Positions 1-13,769 of a stretch of DNA of 20,000 nucleotides are shown piece after piece (positions within the stretch are counted from its first letter, which is position 1; each line of letters begins with the position of its first letter). Made by a program: the position numbers and the translations under genes. This DNA comes from an uncultured virus (IMG/VR IMGVR_UViG_3300042869_000273). Its lineage: Duplodnaviria > Heunggongvirae > Uroviricota > Caudoviricetes. The stretch is taken from the IMG/VR virus record IMGVR_UViG_3300042869_000273, one strand, 5' to 3'. The notes under the pieces were generated by a model. It did no database searches, was not told the origin of the DNA, and saw only the letters and a program-made list of their open reading frames with translations.

Positions 1-344
1 ACATTAGGCCCAATTAGTTTAGGAATAGCATCACTAGCCCTAGGTCTTTGAACTCTAAAAAATTTACCTGCACTTTTATCTAAGTTATTAGAATGAAAAT
101 TAACAGCAGCATCCGCATAATCAGTAACAGAATTATTCACAATCATGTGAAGTTCTTTAGTGGCTCTTGTAACTTCTGGTTTAACATCAGATTTGATATT
201 ATTTTTTAATAAGTCTCTAAGTCTCTTTTGATGTCTACGGATACCTCTTGAAACATTTGTAGATGTCTCTGCCTCATATAACCTTGTATCAGCTAAGTGC
301 TGAATAATACGATCATAGAGATCTGTATTAATTGGTGTTGGCAT
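1..344 (-). CDS. Probable minor head/head morphogenesis protein (SPP1 gp7/Mu gpF-like), N-terminal part; runs off the window
   Basis: Not in ORF track. Manually read ATG at 344 after an AAGGAG RBS; frame open to window edge (MPTPINTDLYDRIIQHLADTRLYEAETS...). Product inferred from position after the portal. Confidence 0.55.
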   Translation of the reverse strand, partial: MPTPINTDLYDRIIQHLADTRLYEAETSTNVSRGIRRHQKRLRDLLKNNIKSDVKPEVTRATKELHMIVNNSVTDYADAAVNFHSNNLDKSAGKFFRVQRPRASDAIPKLIGPN

Positions 345-6012: not shown

Positions 6013-6398
6013 TGTGTAACTGCCTTATTATGTATAGTTATAACCTCTGGAGGAATCTTACATTGATCATTGTACTTAACGATCTCACGATCAACATATT
6101 GAATCTGCACCTCAGCAGCCTCTTTAACAATCTTTTCTTTTGTTAATACTTTTGTTACTATTTTAGTATTAACTATTTCTTTCTTAGCAGCTAACTCAGC
6201 TACTTTCTTTTCTAATTCAGTAACTCTATCTTGCCATACTTTATCAGCAGTTTTATAGCCTATTAAAAATAAAGATGCAAAGATTAATCCTACAGCAATA
6301 GGTCTGTAAGTTTCAAATTCTTTTATTAGCCATCCAAACAACCCTACCATTAGGGTAATAAACAATAGCCAAGTAGGTATATAGTTTAATATAAACAT
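6009..6398 (-). CDS. i-spanin (Rz-like inner-membrane protein)
   Basis: N-terminal TM segments, coiled coil, C-terminal Cys (QCKIPPE), ATGA overlap with the lipoprotein gene. Confidence 0.75.
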   Translation of the reverse strand: MFILNYIPTWLLFITLMVGLFGWLIKEFETYRPIAVGLIFASLFLIGYKTADKVWQDRVTELEKKVAELAAKKEIVNTKIVTKVLTKEKIVKEAAEVQIQYVDREIVKYNDQCKIPPEVITIHNKAVTQ

Positions 6399-6415
6399 TT
6401 AAATCCTTTAAAAGA

Positions 6416-6491
6416 AGAGTGATAGTGGGAGTCGAACTCACATTCCGAAGCAATTAAATCCTCGATTCTACCGATTGAATTATACCACTCT
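6416..6491 (-). ncRNA. Aberrant tRNA-like element (nominal anticodon UAA, no encoded CCA); possibly a pseudo-tRNA
   Basis: Cloverleaf: acceptor AGAGTGGTA/TATCACTCT, D arm ATTC-AATCGGTA-GAAT, T arm GTGAG-TTCGACT-CCCAC; irregular anticodon arm. Confidence 0.65.
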
Positions 6492-6536
6492 ATGACGCCT
6501 TTTACTGTAGCGACAACAGCCCTAAGGTGGGATCAT
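6492..6536 (-). ncRNA. Candidate compact structured RNA (two hairpins plus pseudoknot pairing)
   Basis: ATGAT-CCC-ACCTTA-GGG-CTGT-TGTCGCT-ACAG-TAAAAGGC-GTCAT; both loops are complementary to the 3' segment AAGGCG. Confidence 0.5.
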
Positions 6537-6579
6537 GCTGAATACCTCATGAACTTAATCACTTGGCTATCAGAAGGTT

Positions 6580-6655
6580 TGGTTGCGAAGGAAGGGATCG
6601 CACCTCCGACCTCTGGGGTATGAACCCAGCGCTCTTCTAACTGAGCTACCTCGCC
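6580..6655 (-). tRNA. tRNA-Met(CAT), initiator (fMet) type
   Basis: 76-nt cloverleaf with encoded CCA; anticodon arm CTGGG-TTCATAC-CCCAG with three consecutive G-C pairs; 1:72 mismatch (G:A). Confidence 0.92.
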
Positions 6656-6664
6656 TATTTAAAT

Positions 6665-6883
6665 TTATTTTTTCTCCTTTTGGGGATACATGATATCTGA
6701 TTGTTTATCAAAACAATATTTTGTAATAGTTGTTGTATTATTTACTACCATGTTAGCCCAAGCTGTTTGAGCATCAATAAAGTCATTAGCTACTTTATTT
6801 AGGGTAGTATCAGTGATGACCTTGTTAGTAAAGTCATGCTTAAGGCTCTGAAAAGAGTTAATATAAAATTGAGGTGTAAACAT
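6665..6883 (-). CDS. Hypothetical helical protein (72 aa)
   Basis: ORF with AAGGA RBS immediately downstream of terL. Confidence 0.7.
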   Translation of the reverse strand: MFTPQFYINSFQSLKHDFTNKVITDTTLNKVANDFIDAQTAWANMVVNNTTTITKYCFDKQSDIMYPQKEKK

Positions 6884-6892
6884 ATAGTTCCT

Positions 6893-8218
6893 TTAAAACA
6901 TAAAACCTTTAGTAACTGTCTTAGTTCCTGAACGAACAGGGAATAAGTATTCAACAGCATATCTTAGTGCATCTGTCCAATGTTCTACATTTTCAGACTT
7001 AGATATTTGTGCTGTGTTTGGATTGTTCTCAACCCATACAGTTCTTTCAAGGGATCGAATTGTGTGTTCTGCTCGTGGATGAATATACATGTCTATATCA
7101 CCATTAGCATTCTTAAACTTACGATTAACAGCAGCTACAGAGTCTACAATAGGAGGAGCAGCTCTATGCGCTCTACAGACAATGCCATAGCTCTCTAAGA
7201 TAGAGAAATCAGTGGCTCCAGCAACAGCACTAGTCTTTCTAGCACGTCCTGCAGGGTCTGGATAAGCAAATATCCTGTGTCCCTTGTCTTTAAATTGTGT
7301 CTTAAGCTTCTTAGCTAATTGTTCGGTATCGAGTACATTCTGCATGTCCTCTAAGATATGTATTTGGCCAGCTCTAACAGCAAATACTACTGCAGCCATA
7401 ATACCAATGTTAAAGTCGATAGCTACATGCACATCTTCTTTGTTTGCTGTCTCTACATTGAAGTAAGGGAGATCAGCAGTAACATGGGTTCTACGGTCAA
7501 ACATGTAGAATACTTTAGCACCAGAGTCTTCAAATGAACACTCATACTCTCGGGCAAACTTCATAGGATCAATCAGACGCTTAGTCCTCTCGATCTCTTG
7601 TACAGATAAAAAGGGAGAGTCTCTGTAAGTATATCTAAAGGTTTTCCAACGATTATCCATTGTCTCAAAGTTAGTCATGTCATAAAAGTAGTTCATACCT
7701 TTAGGAGTACCAATAATGAGAGCCTTATGATTACCTGCCCAACGTGTAGTCATAGCAGGTTGAATGATAGACTCCCAAGACTCTTTAAGTCCTGGTTGAC
7801 CTGTCCAGTCAGAGACCTCATCCCCAACAACAAAGTATTGACCTGATCCTCGCATCCGTTCAGATGCTTCATAAGACCATAACTTAAGCTTAACATTATT
7901 TGGAAACCAGAATGTTCCAGCTGTCTGGGAAGACTTTTCAGCATAATCCTCTAGACCTAAGTTATAGGCTAATAGTGGCCAATAAATATCTAATGACTGT
8001 TGATATGTAGGGCAGATGATAGACACATTCTTATTAGGAACATCTTCATCCATCTCTAGCAGCTCATGCACAGCCATTGTAGCGGCAACACTAGCAAGGT
8101 AACTCTTACCAAAGCCTCGTGAGGCTACTGTAGCAGCATATCTTGTGCCGCCCTTCTCAGAGAATAAATACTTTAATACTTCTGACTGACCTCTGTGTAA
8201 TTTAATTTCATTTGACAT
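6893..8218 (-). CDS. terL: Terminase large subunit
   Basis: Q motif (LHRGQ), Walker A SRGFGKS, Walker B FVVGDE, coupling motif GTPKG, nuclease acidic residues AIDFN, YPDPAG, HWTDALRY. Confidence 0.96.
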   Translation of the reverse strand: MSNEIKLHRGQSEVLKYLFSEKGGTRYAATVASRGFGKSYLASVAATMAVHELLEMDEDVPNKNVSIICPTYQQSLDIYWPLLAYNLGLEDYAEKSSQTAGTFWFPNNVKLKLWSYEASERMRGSGQYFVVGDEVSDWTGQPGLKESWESIIQPAMTTRWAGNHKALIIGTPKGMNYFYDMTNFETMDNRWKTFRYTYRDSPFLSVQEIERTKRLIDPMKFAREYECSFEDSGAKVFYMFDRRTHVTADLPYFNVETANKEDVHVAIDFNIGIMAAVVFAVRAGQIHILEDMQNVLDTEQLAKKLKTQFKDKGHRIFAYPDPAGRARKTSAVAGATDFSILESYGIVCRAHRAAPPIVDSVAAVNRKFKNANGDIDMYIHPRAEHTIRSLERTVWVENNPNTAQISKSENVEHWTDALRYAVEYLFPVRSGTKTVTKGFMF

Positions 8219-8422
8219 TTAAACGTATAAGTCTACACTATCCTTAGTTAAGACACCTTTTTTATTCTTTGCATTAATCTCTTCAAGTTTTCGATAGAAC
8301 TCTGCTATCTCCATTCTAGCTTGGAGGCCTTCTCGGAATACTTTATCAGAAGCTTCCTTGAGTGCATTGTATTGTTCTTGGTACTTCTTTATGCTGTATT
8401 CAGCAGATGCTTGGACTCTCAT
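8219..8422 (-). CDS. Hypothetical coiled-coil protein
   Basis: 67-aa ORF with AAGGA RBS, stop abuts the terL start. Confidence 0.7.
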   Translation of the reverse strand: MRVQASAEYSIKKYQEQYNALKEASDKVFREGLQARMEIAEFYRKLEEINAKNKKGVLTKDSVDLYV

Positions 8423-8488
8423 AGCTTATCCTTAAAAATGTATACTTTATTACTAAAAAACTAATATTTAATTAATTTGTATACTTTG

Positions 8489-8887
8489 TTATTCGTTTGT
8501 AAACACAATTTTAAGAGGCTTTTTGTCCTCAATCACTTGTTCGGTCTTCTCAGGAACCTGTCTGTAACCATAGCGCATTAACGTGTTCATCACATTAGTT
8601 TGTATGTTCAATAGATTAGCCATAGCAACAGCAGAGAACCTTGTCTTGCCTTCTTCCATGTCCGTAACCTTATCCTGTACAGTGTAGTAGTGCTCCACTA
8701 GCTTCTCAATAGGATCAAATCCCAGTGTCTGAAGCTTCTTAACAGACTCCTTAGAGTATATAGTGGTAGTTCCCTTTGGACGTCCTTGTCCAGGTCGCAA
8801 GCCTCCACGCTGACCATAAGTAGTTCTAGCTTTATAGTCTTTACTCGTGGGATCAGGTGAAGACACTTTTTCATCAGTGTCTGACAT
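8489..8887 (-). CDS. Putative terminase small subunit
   Basis: GGLRPGQGRPKG motif common in small terminases, helical core, beta-like C-terminus (KPLKIVF), two genes upstream of terL. Confidence 0.65.
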   Translation of the reverse strand: MSDTDEKVSSPDPTSKDYKARTTYGQRGGLRPGQGRPKGTTTIYSKESVKKLQTLGFDPIEKLVEHYYTVQDKVTDMEEGKTRFSAVAMANLLNIQTNVMNTLMRYGYRQVPEKTEQVIEDKKPLKIVFTNE

Positions 8888-8890
8888 AGT

Positions 8891-9190
8891 TTATTTTCCT
8901 TGCATTGGGTTCTTTGAGTTGCGTCTAGCCACTGGTTTAGCAGAAGTCTTAACAACAGGAACAATATTATTGCTGTGTAATTGGATCTTTAGATCAGAGA
9001 TCATAGTGAGTAACTCATCTTTATCTCTAAGCAGTTTGTCAACTTTACCCTCTAACTTCTTCACCTCTGACATAAGAAGCTCAGTAAGTTTATCATGGGC
9101 CTCTTGGCGCTGCTTATCTTTGTTATGCAGGTAAGTCCAGAAGGCACCAGTACTTAACACAACAATAGCCACTTGTACGATTGATTCCAT
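8891..9190 (-). CDS. Membrane-anchored coiled-coil protein (99 aa)
   Basis: Preferred start MESIV at 9190 with AAGGA RBS; N-terminal TM then heptad pattern; first gene after the putative late promoter. Confidence 0.7.
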   Translation of the reverse strand: MESIVQVAIVVLSTGAFWTYLHNKDKQRQEAHDKLTELLMSEVKKLEGKVDKLLRDKDELLTMISDLKIQLHSNNIVPVVKTSAKPVARRNSKNPMQGK

Positions 9191-9229
9191 TTTAATTCCT
9201 TTAATTTTGGCGATTTCTATACACATCGG

Positions 9230-9266
9230 GAGGTACCCTCTATTGGTCGGGAGCCAATAGTACCTC
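9230..9266 (-). other. Bulged stem-loop in the late leader
   Basis: GAGGTAC-TATTGG-(CTCCCGA)-CCAATA-[GAGG]-GTACCTC. Confidence 0.6.
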
Positions 9267-9289
9267 TACACAAATGTTACAGAAACATC

Positions 9290-9398
9290 TAAAATAATAT
9301 TTTAAAGTACTCTTTAAAGTACTCCTTAAAAATATTTTATAATATTATTTTAATAATAACAACAATAACAATAATAATTTAAATATTATTATAATTAA
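9290..9398. repeat. Very AT-rich tract with tandem 12-mer TTTAAAGTACTC x2 (9301-9324) and an (AAT/AAC)n run
   Basis: Directly visible; no ORF. Confidence 0.8.
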
Positions 9399-9428
9399 CC
9401 CCCTAAATCCCCCTTTTGGATGGGATTC

Positions 9429-9449
9429 TCTCTTTAGCGTCCCCTGGTA
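9429..9449 (-). promoter_or_regulatory. Putative phage RNA polymerase (SP6/T7-type) promoter, copy 1; predicted +1 at 9432
   Basis: TACCAGGGGACGCTAAAGAGA, identical to the copy at 10065-10085; resembles SP6 ATTTAGGTGACACTATAGA; immediately downstream of a terminator. Confidence 0.75.
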
Positions 9450-9458
9450 GTTTTTAGC

Positions 9459-9541
9459 AAAAAAAAAAAAAAAGAAACCCCTCCAGAGTACCCCCTAACC
9501 ACCATCCCGAAGGACAGTAGCTAAGGAGCACCCTGGAGGGG
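9459..9541 (-). terminator. Very long intrinsic terminator: 30-bp stem, UUCG loop, UUUC-U15 tail
   Basis: 9478-9541 folds fully on the minus strand (22 Watson-Crick + 8 G-U), followed by TTTC and 15 T. Confidence 0.85.
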
Positions 9542-9570
9542 AATATAGGGTTATAGGCCCCTATCTGCCT

Positions 9571-10047
9571 TTATTCATAAAATATATGGGAAGAAATCTT
9601 TACTTTCTTTTCCAATTTATTACTCCAATATGGTTTAACATATGAAGCATGGTAGTGTGTAGCACCATAGGTTGGGTCTTTGGTATTCCCTACTAATGTA
9701 TTAAATGCTATTTGTTTAGCTAGACTCTCAGCTTCTATTTCCTTGAGTCTACCTCGTATCTTTAGTTTATCTAGGGTCCACGAGAATGCATGTGGTTGAT
9801 AAACTACTTCACAGATACTGCTCCCATGTTTACCTGACTTAAGCCTATTCAGGGTTACATGAGCAACAGCCTCTTGCCCTTTAATTGGTTGATTCCTAGC
9901 TTCATGATAAATATTTCTAGTTAGACACTCAACTTCACTGTTGTCTATATCCTGAACTATTGGTAACGACTTTATAACTATATGCTGATGAGCAACAGTT
10001 AATAAAAGAACTAAACCAAGAAGGACGAGTATTAGTCGTCTAGTCAT
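9571..10047 (-). CDS. Cell-wall hydrolase, SleB/Hydrolase_2 family, with N-terminal TM
   Basis: CLTRNIYHEARNQ, AVAHVTLNR, ICEVVYQ...FSW, DPTYGATHYHA, HIFY motifs. Confidence 0.92.
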   Translation of the reverse strand: MTRRLILVLLGLVLLLTVAHQHIVIKSLPIVQDIDNSEVECLTRNIYHEARNQPIKGQEAVAHVTLNRLKSGKHGSSICEVVYQPHAFSWTLDKLKIRGRLKEIEAESLAKQIAFNTLVGNTKDPTYGATHYHASYVKPYWSNKLEKKVKISSHIFYE

Positions 10048-10064
10048 AATAGTTGATCCTTATT

Positions 10065-10085
10065 TCTCTTTAGCGTCCCCTGGTA
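10065..10085 (-). promoter_or_regulatory. Putative phage RNA polymerase promoter, copy 2; predicted +1 at 10068
   Basis: Exact 21-bp copy, intergenic, followed by an AAGGA RBS and the hydrolase ATG at 10047. Confidence 0.75.
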
Positions 10086-10098
10086 ACTTAAGCCAGCC

Positions 10099-10395
10099 TT
10101 AGAGATATTTTCTTTTGTCTGCAAGGTCTTTACCATAGCTGACAATACACATTTGTTTACGATTGTCTTTTGGGGTAATAGTCAAGGCTAATGCGCCTTT
10201 AGTGTCTCTAAAGCTAACCCAGATATTCTCATCTTGATCAATCCAAGATAATTCTACTACTCCTCCAATTTTATCTAGTACCTGTTGAGTATCATTACAG
10301 TATACCGCAACAACCCTTTTAGCGTATTCCTCAGCTGCTTGAGCTGTGCTAACCACTAACAAAGCAACCAACACAACTGATTTGAAATTAAACAT
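10099..10395 (-). CDS. Hypothetical exported protein
   Basis: Signal peptide (...TAQA), two Cys, AAGGA RBS. Confidence 0.7.
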   Translation of the reverse strand: MFNFKSVVLVALLVVSTAQAAEEYAKRVVAVYCNDTQQVLDKIGGVVELSWIDQDENIWVSFRDTKGALALTITPKDNRKQMCIVSYGKDLADKRKYL

Positions 10396-10404
10396 TTTAG
10401 TTCC

Positions 10405-10626
10405 TTAACTAATAAAAACTGCTTTTTCCTGTTTATTAAATGGGTAACTATTGTTAGGAGTTACTAATTCATGAGGACCATAGTACCACTCATTGTTAAT
10501 GTCTAATGCAATTGTGCATGGACCAGTTCCTGCGATCTCAGTAACCCCTCCCTCATAACCAGCCTTAACGACTATTACCTCGGGGTCTAACTTACTGAGT
10601 TGTTCAATTAACTCTTTAACTTTCAT
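10405..10626 (-). CDS. Hypothetical protein
   Basis: MKVKELIEQLSKLDPE start typical of small phage proteins; tight packing. Confidence 0.75.
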   Translation of the reverse strand: MKVKELIEQLSKLDPEVIVVKAGYEGGVTEIAGTGPCTIALDINNEWYYGPHELVTPNNSYPFNKQEKAVFIS

Positions 10627-10627
10627 C

Positions 10628-10807
10628 TTAACCTAATTCTTTTAGCTCAATTGTTGACCATTCTATATTATGGTCTTTTAATGTATTATCATATTCCATT
10701 TTAAAGTTTTCTGCACCTTCACGAGTACGAAACACTTCTTCAAAGTGAGTATATTTTATACTATTGTGTAAAAATAAACCTTTAAATAACCATACTACAT
10801 CTTTCAT
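10628..10807 (-). CDS. Hypothetical protein (59 aa, MKDVVWLFKG...)
   Basis: Manually read; ATGA overlap with the upstream gene, fills the gap. Confidence 0.6.
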   Translation of the reverse strand: MKDVVWLFKGLFLHNSIKYTHFEEVFRTREGAENFKMEYDNTLKDHNIEWSTIELKELG

Positions 10808-11001
10808 TTAATTTGCTCCTGTTCATAATTTAATCCTAATTCCCTAGCATTCTCTGCTTTCCTTTCTAAAGCGTCTTGAGCTTTATCAAACTCTTTATCA
10901 TGCTCTTTCTGGCCTTTATCACGACCAAAGATTAAGTCCCATCTAGCTTCATACTGTTCTTGAGCTACATTGAATGGCCTTGGTCTAGATCCTTTACTCA
11001 T
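10804..11001 (-). CDS. Hypothetical protein (MSKGSRPRPF...)
   Basis: Preferred start 11001, just after the upstream stop. Confidence 0.7.
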   Translation of the reverse strand: MSKGSRPRPFNVAQEQYEARWDLIFGRDKGQKEHDKEFDKAQDALERKAENARELGLNYEQEQIK

Positions 11002-11003
11002 AT

Positions 11004-11507
11004 TTAATCCCATAATGCTTGATAATACTTTCCAAATAGCCTAAATCCATTTTGGATTCTAGCCTCGTGTTTTTCTAGACCTTCCATATCTATCTTAAAG
11101 GTATCGTTTGGTCCTCTTACCATTTCAGAATAAAAAGGATATTCTTTTGATTTAATAAACTGGAGATCATGTGTCCCTGAATAAAACTCTTTATCATGAT
11201 CAATGTCAATTTTGGTTTTAAATGACCAGATCATTTCATCCATGATCCAGTCCCATCTCTTAAACCAATTTTCATCTGTATCCCACTCGTTTTCTTTAGG
11301 TGGGGCACTTGTACTTTTAAGATAATCAGGAACATCATCATCATCTATATTAGGACTACCCTGTTTCTTTTCTTTAAGCAAAAGAAGAGCAGGATGAATA
11401 ATATAGGCTAATGTATGATCTAGACTCCAGATATCATAGTTGTCAATTGTGACATCAATCTCTCGATCAAGGTCATCATCTCGATACTCTCCAATTAATA
11501 CTTTCAT
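11004..11507 (-). CDS. Hypothetical acidic phage protein
   Basis: 167-aa ORF coupled to neighbours; DIWSLDHTLA...RWDWIMDEMIWSF...GFRLFGKYYQALWD. Confidence 0.8.
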   Translation of the reverse strand: MKVLIGEYRDDDLDREIDVTIDNYDIWSLDHTLAYIIHPALLLLKEKKQGSPNIDDDDVPDYLKSTSAPPKENEWDTDENWFKRWDWIMDEMIWSFKTKIDIDHDKEFYSGTHDLQFIKSKEYPFYSEMVRGPNDTFKIDMEGLEKHEARIQNGFRLFGKYYQALWD

Positions 11508-11800
11508 ATAACCTTTGCGTTAATAAGATCACCTGTACTATCAAACTCTAACTCAAGATTCTCTATTTCACCATGAGTAGCTACTTTAAATATAGGTGCT
11601 CTGCCAATCTGGATTACACTATACCTATAAATTTTGTTTTTAGGCGTTTCTCTATACTCTACATTTTCATTAAAGCTAGGGAAATTACCACCCATTACTG
11701 ATAGTCTAGGCACATCAACCCATTCACCTAAGCTATAGTACTGAATTTGCTTATCTTCTAGATAGGCAATAATTAAATCATGATGAGGATGAATTTTCAT
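11504..11800 (-). CDS. Hypothetical protein
   Basis: 98-aa ORF overlapping neighbours in the operon direction. Confidence 0.7.
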   Translation of the reverse strand: MKIHPHHDLIIAYLEDKQIQYYSLGEWVDVPRLSVMGGNFPSFNENVEYRETPKNKIYRYSVIQIGRAPIFKVATHGEIENLELEFDSTGDLINAKVI

Positions 11801-12026
11801 ACATTTCCTGTGTAATATAGTTGTTTCTCATTAGCTGATTCCTTACATCGGTAGGTAAGAAATAAACACCATCATAGTCTTCTAGTTGCATATCTTTATC
11901 AAACCAAAGACCGCCTCCATTTTCGTCACCAACAATCTTATCTTCAAACCAACCATATCTAGCGTTAGTATTAATCCATATCTCAAACTTATTAGTTGAG
12001 AGGTTTATGCTTTGTGAATTCAACAC
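11778..12026 (-). CDS. Hypothetical protein
   Basis: 82-aa ORF filling the gap; start uncertain. Confidence 0.6.
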   Translation of the reverse strand: MLNSQSINLSTNKFEIWINTNARYGWFEDKIVGDENGGGLWFDKDMQLEDYDGVYFLPTDVRNQLMRNNYITQEMYENSSSS

Positions 12027-13246: not shown

Positions 13247-13467
13247 TTTATTTCCTCATAAATAGTGTCATTATATGTGTCTTTAAAAGACCATACTCGA
13301 TTACAAGAAGAACAGCTTAACTTACCTGTAGTTACACTTAAGTCTACTGCTAAATTATTTCCTTCTTTATCATACATAGGTGCAGAATACCCACCTGTCC
13401 TAGCAGTATCAGTAAGCGTAAACTTACAGTCACTTCTCATACAGTCTAACAGTTTAAAAGTTTTCAT
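13243..13467 (-). CDS. Small putative Zn-ribbon protein
   Basis: C-x4-C and C-x2-C pairs in 74 aa. Confidence 0.65.
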   Translation of the reverse strand: MKTFKLLDCMRSDCKFTLTDTARTGGYSAPMYDKEGNNLAVDLSVTTGKLSCSSCNRVWSFKDTYNDTIYEEIK

Positions 13468-13769
13468 GTGTGTTCAATTATTTTAATACCAGCCTCTTTA
13501 ATAGCTGACATACATATCGGACAAGGTTTAGCATTTAATGGATCACCCTGTCTGCCGTATCTAGCTACAAAGATTCTGTAAGCTTTGTTTAAATCCTTAC
13601 ATTTAAGAATAGCATGTACCTCTGCGTGTAAATATATTTTGTATGGTTCACCAACCCCCACAGCATGTTTTGCCATAAGAGGGTGGCTTTTTACATAATT
13701 ATTTTGACCTACAGAAAGTACACGTCCCTTCTTATCATATAAGATAGCAGTCAGGGTGTGTTTAGTCAT
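13464..13769 (-). CDS. Cytidine/dCMP deaminase-like Zn-dependent protein
   Basis: HAE and PCPIC zinc-binding motifs. Confidence 0.85.
   Translation of the reverse strand: MTKHTLTAILYDKKGRVLSVGQNNYVKSHPLMAKHAVGVGEPYKIYLHAEVHAILKCKDLNKAYRIFVARYGRQGDPLNAKPCPICMSAIKEAGIKIIEHT

Follow-up and report, generated by a model that had tools for sequence, protein, structure and literature searches.

The question raised by this locus is why an exact 21-bp sequence stands twice between the genes of a tailed phage and which enzyme, if any, reads it. The window, i.e., the whole stretch of 20,000 nucleotides analysed here, derives from an uncultured virus of the class Caudoviricetes (IMG/VR record IMGVR_UViG_3300042869_000273), and the repeat, TACCAGGGGACGCTAAAGAGA, is present in it exactly two times, at 9429–9449 and 10065–10085, both on the minus strand, on which the long open reading frames (ORFs) of the window lie without exception. 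A sequence-only reading had described the copies as intergenic and gene-oriented promoters of the SP6/T7 type, made for a single-subunit RNA polymerase (RNAP) encoded outside the window. The repeat itself was confirmed by a search of the window, and comparison with its ORFs places the copy at 10065–10085 in a 51-nt gap between the stop codon of the ORF 10099–10395 and the ATG at 10047, and the copy at 9429–9449 in a 344-nt gap between the ORFs 9571–10047 and 8891–9226, both in the direction of the genes. The answer proposed here with high confidence, from comparative sequence evidence, is that the twin copies belong, as middle/late promoters, to the T7/T3/SP6 type, with predicted +1 positions and with a free RNAP of 722 amino acids (aa) as their presumed reader.

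The repeat is distinct from the rest of the window, in which no further match to TACCAGGGGACGCTAAAGAGA was detected at up to three mismatches, and the expectation by chance is a mean of 0.00 matches (200 dinucleotide-preserving shuffles). The pair, with a spacing of 636, forms the direct-repeat family D13 and is the sole 100%-identical pair among the 20 families listed of 35, the remaining listed families ranging from 73 to 94% identity. The likeness to SP6 counted in the sequence-only reading, 12 matches among the 15 positions between -13 and +2, was obtained again against a genuine site of the SP6 genome (L153 8410–8432), with 13/23 matches over the span of -17 to +6. The G at +1 is likewise predicted at the same positions as before, 9432 and 10068.

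The limits of the element were drawn from 79 unique IMG/VR sites with the 15-mer core, whose flanks were left free by the search. These flanks are conserved solely at -17 to -15 (T/c, A, C) and at +2 to +6 (AGAGA) and reach background at -18 and +7, thus defining a block of 23 bp from -17 to +6, which is also the span of the promoters of the T7 group. Extended in this way, the copy next to the hydrolase start, here called P2 (TACCAGGGGACGCTAAAGAGAAA, 10063–10085, minus strand), has one mismatch to the 23-bp consensus, and the other, P3 (TACCAGGGGACGCTAAAGAGAGA, 9427–9449, minus strand), has none, both containing the exact repeat.

The RNAP that such promoters call for had been placed outside the window, with a profile search for PF00940 suggested as its check. 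This search, validated on the phage DSS3_VP1 (E 1.3e-82), was applied to 14 motif-bearing records (G001–G014) and supports the proposal through near-identical relatives of the window. In particular, G005, a record of 80,335 bp rated 100% by CheckV, whose alignment with the window spans 18,877 bases at 92.3% identity, encodes a PF00940 RNAP of 722 aa (E 5.3e-81, genome scan); G012, a 34-kb contig 94–98.6% identical to the window over ~14.8 kb and with the same hydrolase allele, carries on a single contig a PF00940 RNAP gene (E 3.2e-80), a variant of the promoter (P1) directly after it, and both twin copies. A free RNAP was found altogether in 8/14 motif-bearing records (E 1e-44 or better) and in five of the six of those rated at least 90% complete. 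The enzyme of G005 aligns to residues 391–883 of T7 RNAP (E 8.7e-63, phmmer against PDB chains) and retains equivalents of T7 D537, K631, Y639, and D812 together with a homologue of the specificity loop; counterparts of ~160 residues of the T7 N-terminal domain are missing. The residues of the specificity loop differ between the clade of the window and DSS3_VP1, as do their promoters, in a comparison that comprises two clades only and is not a test of co-variation.

The distribution of the motif along the genomes is the second line of evidence. Scanning with the 23-mer gave five sites at up to five mismatches in each of G005, G002, and G003, all on the coding strand, the next-best matches having seven or eight mismatches and falling on both strands. 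With the 15-mer at up to two mismatches, 21/21 matches in five records were on one strand per record, which is the RNAP gene's strand in the four records bearing one, and a reversed control pattern gave 0 matches in the same five records. The sequence-only reading had held that copies placed at random or within genes would speak against promoters; the copies of the relatives are in fact on the coding strand and, in close relatives, between genes. In G005 the motif is also the only 11-mer family repeated at least three times at intergenic sites. In a map of this genome, based on longest-ORF calls of a crude procedure and on PHROGs, P1 follows the small early genes and the RNAP gene and heads ~23 kb of replication and nucleotide-metabolism genes; P2 and P3 stand before and after a SleB hydrolase gene, with a terminator preceding P3; the P3 unit comprises packaging, tRNA, lysis, PhoH, portal, MuF-RNAP (a fusion considered below), scaffold, capsid, and tail-tube genes; P4 is located between the major tail protein gene and the block of tape-measure and tail genes, and P5 before the tail-fibre genes. 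No 23-mer site was found upstream of the early genes or of the RNAP gene in G005, G002, and G003. A small 5' hairpin lies at the start of each predicted transcript.

The position after the RNAP gene was also inspected by eye in IMG/VR loci. With an RNAP of 63% identity or more to that of G005, 22/23 loci have a promoter variant that starts 3–25 nt past the RNAP stop codon, and with an RNAP of 59% identity or less, 0/13. The variant is TACCAGGGTACGCTAAAGCAC in the close clade and CGCTTAAG, ACATTAAAG or CGATAAAG in more distant members, with tandem pairs at two loci; for comparison, the start of T7 phi1.1A is annotated 26 nt past the stop of gene 1. DSS3_VP1 has a variant of its own, TAATAGGTTACGTTAAAGAGGGG, with 12 sites at up to six mismatches, all of them on the coding strand with 0 on the opposite one, and 8/12 are intergenic according to the annotation.

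Several observations weigh against this assignment. The RNAP is known from near-identical relatives and not from the window's own molecule, and no PF00940 match was obtained in G001, a 24-kb fragment (30% complete) that is 99.7% identical to the window over 17,797 bases and contains both copies. A free RNAP is lacking in 6/14 motif-bearing records: three of these (G001, G013, and G014) are 18–25-kb fragments of the window's phage group; the other three are single-copy records with poor flanks, matching at 1/8 positions in G007 (complete), 3/8 in G006 (76% complete), and 5/8 in G009 (45%), and their sites are probably chance matches of the 15-mer. At the scale of IMG/VR, where the 15-mer matched 118 stretches at 122 sites, 31/122 sites have no more than 3/8 flank matches, so that these stretches probably include chance matches too. 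Some sites are not intergenic: small annotated genes contain four of the 12 in DSS3_VP1, and short ORFs of the crude caller contain 2/3 of the G004 sites as well as the P3 sites of G005 and G002. Finally, RNA speaks neither for nor against the starts: four metatranscriptome runs contain only 5–7% of the sampled words and yielded 2–3 short contigs each at a likeness of at least 85%, and these contigs, which belong to relatives and have a word depth of 2.3–11.1, cover 8500–9334 and two short stretches within 9605–9872, reaching neither promoter, giving no transcript starts or ends, and carrying no information on habitat.

A different reader can be envisaged in the second RNAP-like gene of these phages, which the sequence-only reading had overlooked. 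The gene is placed directly after the portal gene, and its first 114 codons are within the window (3–344, minus strand); the 114 aa encoded there match the N-terminal part of a 1472-aa protein of G005 (record positions 28853–33271; L142:8853-13271:-) at 82% identity. This protein combines PF04233 (MuF, E 9.6e-11) with a divergent C-terminal PF00940 domain (E 4.8e-7), and the fused domain retains motifs of the RGRVY, DASSSG, FYGAG, and HDAF types that align to the catalytic motifs of T7 RNAP. Homologues of the fused domain in the phage collection are limited to DSS3_PM1 and DSS3_VP1 (60%), where they are annotated as minor head or head morphogenesis protein, and EBPR siphovirus 1 (35%), followed by T7-type RNAPs at 21–22%. 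From its sequence, the MuF-RNAP fusion is a candidate for an RNAP delivered with the virion. The motif could then be a promoter read by this capsid-associated fusion and not by the free RNAP, and it counts in favour of such a reader, and against the free one, that a protein of ~1472 aa with PF04233 and divergent PF00940 is encoded by each motif-bearing relative covering the region, with the catalytic-type motifs kept. Even so, this assignment is quite improbable: the motif heads replication, packaging, and structural blocks and is absent before early genes, as expected of a post-infection enzyme, the 23-mer resembles the promoters of the T7 group, and the likeness to T7 RNAP is much greater in the free RNAP than in the fused domain (E 8.7e-63 vs. 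4.2e-5, phmmer, PDB chains). The window motif is assigned to the free RNAP because of this placement and of its T7-group character.

A better candidate for the capsid-borne enzyme is a second motif of ~34 nt, AAGTGAGAAAAATGAYGTATCTATAATAGAAGAA, which was found by reading intergenic stretches and afterwards scanned for. It occurs only upstream of early genes and of the free RNAP gene and never on the opposite strand, once in G005 (coding-strand position 10524) and in G002 (68923), twice in G003 (23813, 24019) and in DSS3_VP1 (35793, 36240), and three times in G004 (813, 1397, 3762); the motif scan found none in the window. This makes it a candidate for an early promoter. When the 4.2 kb preceding the RNAP genes were searched with 9-mers for another repeated motif, nothing in common was obtained. 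It was also observed that AAGTGAGAAAAATGAYGTATCTATAATAGAAGAA directly follows a terminator hairpin in G005, G002, and G003 and that its conservation across the family exceeds that of the late 23-mer.

Taken together with the free RNAP as reader of the 23-mer, these elements could form a relay in which the capsid-borne MuF-RNAP would read the early motif, leading to the free RNAP and, through it, to five 23-bp promoters, with little or no contribution of the host RNAP; the promoter-gene-terminator-promoter cassette would also be a recombination module for the exchange of hydrolase alleles between lineages, and the RNAP/promoter pair would be orthogonal to those of T7, T3, SP6, and K11. The relay in its entirety is proposed tentatively and is given slightly less than an even chance.

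At the twin locus, the free 722-aa RNAP would be encoded ~23 kb upstream of the window's coding-strand start and would initiate at the G 10068 of P2 and at the G 9432 of P3. Behind the predicted start of P2, a leader of 21 nt with an AAGGA ribosome-binding site precedes the ATG at 10047 of a SleB-like cell-wall hydrolase (9571–10047, minus strand; 158 aa with a hydrophobic N-terminus; PF07486, Hydrolase_2, E 4.6e-24; phrog_938 endolysin, E 1.3e-25), which is the lone gene between the twin promoters, so that P2 would drive a one-gene unit. The position and orientation of P2 are kept in G005, G002, G003, and G012, although the sequences upstream of it are unrelated among them. The gene is followed by a predicted terminator (9459–9541, minus strand) composed, according to RNA folding, of a 30-bp hairpin at 9478–9541 with a UUCG loop and of a U-run at 9459–9477; the fold of 9450–9575 has an energy of -67.7 kcal/mol (z -8.15), and 0/200 shuffles were as stable. 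The 30-bp hairpin, which is conserved in G005, G002, and G003, was not reported by a simple terminator scan and was revealed by folding. Hairpin and U-run would end the hydrolase unit and probably also stop read-through from the ~23-kb unit of replication genes. P3 itself begins 9 nt past the U-run and heads the packaging/lysis/portal operon; it would restart transcription into a late operon consisting of the leader, small ORFs, the large terminase (TerL), two tRNAs, lysis genes, PhoH, portal, and MuF-RNAP. A homologous P3 site is present in G005, G002, G003, and G012, and the order promoter, hydrolase, terminator, promoter is common to the same four. A similar junction can be read from the sequence at P4 of G002 and G003, which is directly preceded by a hairpin and a T-run.

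Between the start of P3 and the ATG at 9226 extends an untranslated leader of 206 nt (9227–9432, minus strand) that is conserved in relatives. It comprises a 5' hairpin (~9405–9428), a stretch at ~9335–9400 with 93–95% A+T in 40-nt windows, a direct repeat of GTACTTTAAA in two copies, and a 3' hairpin (~9232–9264) just before the ATG. In an alignment of four sequences, four of the 55 predicted pairs have compensatory changes, all in the 3' hairpin. Rfam holds no family matching the leader or the terminator, the two tRNAs being the only matches. The leader may act in RNA processing or stability, contain a terminase site or, by analogy with the promoters and A+T-rich region of the T7 origin, be a replication origin.

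The same locus suggests a further account of the repeat, namely a site for host RNAP or a regulator, or a signal for recombination, packaging or replication. The alignment between the window and G005, 92% elsewhere, breaks over 9542–10398, a segment that includes the ORF 10099–10395, P2, and the SleB-like gene. The hydrolase is found in two allele types with 39–45% aa identity between and 65–69% within them, which pair the window with G003 and G005 with G002, against the similarity of the backbones. From these alignments the segment looks like a cassette swapped by recombination between lineages, and its conserved flanks may serve this recombination. The primary origin of T7 consists of promoters followed by an A+T-rich region, and P3 followed by a stretch of up to 95% A+T resembles this arrangement. 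As an explanation of the repeat these functions are nevertheless very improbable. In fact, none of the 11 sigma-70-like matches in 8800–10500 overlaps 9427–9449 or 10063–10085, the conserved positions form a single uninterrupted block of 23 bp and include no -35 element set apart from it, and no inverted repeat can be read in the 23-mer; the copies are all co-oriented with genes and lie 18–232 nt before the next called ORF start or directly after a terminator hairpin, and the co-occurrence with a cognate RNAP gene offers a simpler account. An added origin role of P3 alongside its role as a promoter may exist.

As promoters of the free RNAP, the copies can be compared with those of the T7 group (T7, T3, SP6, and K11), which likewise are contiguous 23-bp elements from -17 to +6. 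The core CTAAAG at -5 to +1 is presumably the same as in the T3 promoter, and the initially transcribed sequence is purine-rich here as well (GAGAGA). The first promoter stands directly after the RNAP gene in T7, as phi1.1A, and in the relatives of the window, and both systems have promoter-gene-terminator units and 5' transcript hairpins. In contrast, the consensus TACCAGGGGACGCTAAAGAGAGA matches none of the known consensus sequences of T7, T3, SP6, and K11, the region from -17 to -13 is not A+T-rich, the RNAP has 722 aa compared to 883 in T7 and is therefore 161 residues shorter, and only five promoters are present per ~80-kb genome (G005, G002, and G003). Moreover, the motif resides in a genome of siphovirus type, with tape-measure and major tail protein genes, unlike the T7 group. 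The promoters of DSS3_VP1 are a homologous class, with the 12 coding-strand sites mentioned above, and their consensus differs from that of the window by AAT for ACC at -16 to -14, T for C at -5, and GGGG for GAGA in the start region.

The proposed relay has a counterpart in coliphage N4, in which a virion RNAP, then RNAPII, and then the host RNAP reportedly act in succession. The likeness would consist in two phage polymerases of the T7 family, one probably delivered with the virion and one synthesised post-infection, and in two promoter classes. The systems differ in that the candidate virion enzyme is here an RNAP-like domain of ~570 aa on a MuF head protein and not a 3500-aa protein, that the free enzyme is a single chain, and that the window motif is linear and T7-like, not a hairpin.

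The nature of the phage was deduced from Pfam and PHROGs searches of 28 window ORFs. The sequence-only reading had stated that the virion module is not Autographiviridae-like, which is borne out. TerL (6893–8218, minus strand; 441 aa; PF03237, E 2e-10), which is of T4 type and encoded by the first large gene behind P3 in its unit, is 59.6% identical to that of DSS3_PM1 and 58.9% to that of DSS3_VP1, and the portal protein 44%. These two phages (Naomviridae, Noahvirus) are the closest cultured relatives, with 50% aa identity in the free RNAP and 49% in MuF-RNAP, the same set of two RNAP genes, and the same one-strand layout; PhoH and a dCMP-deaminase-family gene are also shared with DSS3_VP1. 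The next-closest cultured phages by protein are the Pelagibacter phages Kolga and Aegir and EBPR siphovirus 1. The G+C content is 36% in the window vs. 47.5% in DSS3_VP1, and a megablast search with 8000–12000 of the window gave no nucleotide match in the phage collection. In the record of DSS3_VP1, a tape-measure protein is annotated together with a T7-like DNA polymerase, a primase/helicase, and an "RNA polymerase" of 732 aa. This phage, of siphovirus morphology according to its authors, is the type of the Naomviridae, and the family is described as siphoviruses with T7-like RNAP, DNA polymerase, and primase-helicase (PMC8323127). Judged by genes and layout, the window is from a Naomviridae-like siphovirus; this is a statement of kinship and not a formal assignment.

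The "hybrid lineage" of the sequence-only reading is accordingly real as a siphovirus with a T7-like RNAP, and it is not new, having already been described as Naomviridae. RNAP genes are reported as very rare in siphoviruses, with known cases such as the Xp10 group, Colwellia 9A, and Shewanella KASIA (PMC9145550). In the founding paper of the family, the main text names neither RNAP nor a phage promoter, and RNAP appears in supplementary annotation tables only (PMC8323127). Equally, no published promoter for Naomviridae was found in the literature on the family, on DSS3_VP1 or on the motif string, bioRxiv supplements being outside this search. T7-like promoters are an expected feature of a known phage family and not a new kind of system, and it is unsurprising in itself that a phage with a T7-like RNAP has them. 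What is gained is a promoter consensus, TACCAGGGGACGCTAAAGAGAGA, with the predicted +1 at the G of AAAG, and a map of transcription units for an uncultured clade related to Naomviridae, which extends the T7-style layout (post-RNAP promoter, terminator-promoter junctions, and 5' hairpins) to a siphovirus of ~80 kb. The RNAP/promoter pair is also a reasonable candidate for an orthogonal expression tool because the RNAP is compact and its promoter is unlike the consensus sequences known for T7, T3, SP6, and K11.

Among the other genes of the window are those for a DUF4055-type portal, PhoH, and two tRNAs, and a lysis cassette consisting of a GH19-type endolysin, a LysC/Rz1-like spanin, and a holin; a dCMP-deaminase-family protein, an M28 peptidase, an Nlig-Ia ligase fragment, and a ClpP-like protease are also encoded. 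The clade of the window has two dCMP-deaminase-family genes, one at 13464–13769 of the window (minus strand) and one at coding-strand 20400–20813 of G005, and one of the clade's genes is 37% identical to the deoxycytidylate deaminase gp070 of DSS3_VP1. The phosphoesterase gp041 of DSS3_VP1, presumably its dTMP phosphatase, has no homologue in G005, G002, G003 or the window at E 1e-3, and DNA containing deoxyuridine (dU-DNA) can therefore not be inferred for the phage of the window. A Dcd homologue (37% aa) is present in G005, G002, and G003; the enzyme, which gp070 is taken to be, was characterised as a dCTP deaminase (PMC12697855).

Two observations concern the integrity of genes and records in the relatives. 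The "linear" record of G005 ends inside a long, repetitive Ala/Ser-rich stretch by the tail-fibre genes (coding-strand 78185–80335 and 1–1908), and was probably broken by the assembly at this repeat and not at a physical genome end. In the more distant G004, two ORFs ~770 nt apart make up the free RNAP gene (coding-strand 6386–9412), the break coming after the motif-B region (TLGYGGTAYGMG), which suggests an intron or an inserted element; the TerL gene of DSS3_VP1 is likewise interrupted, by an insert bearing an endonuclease.

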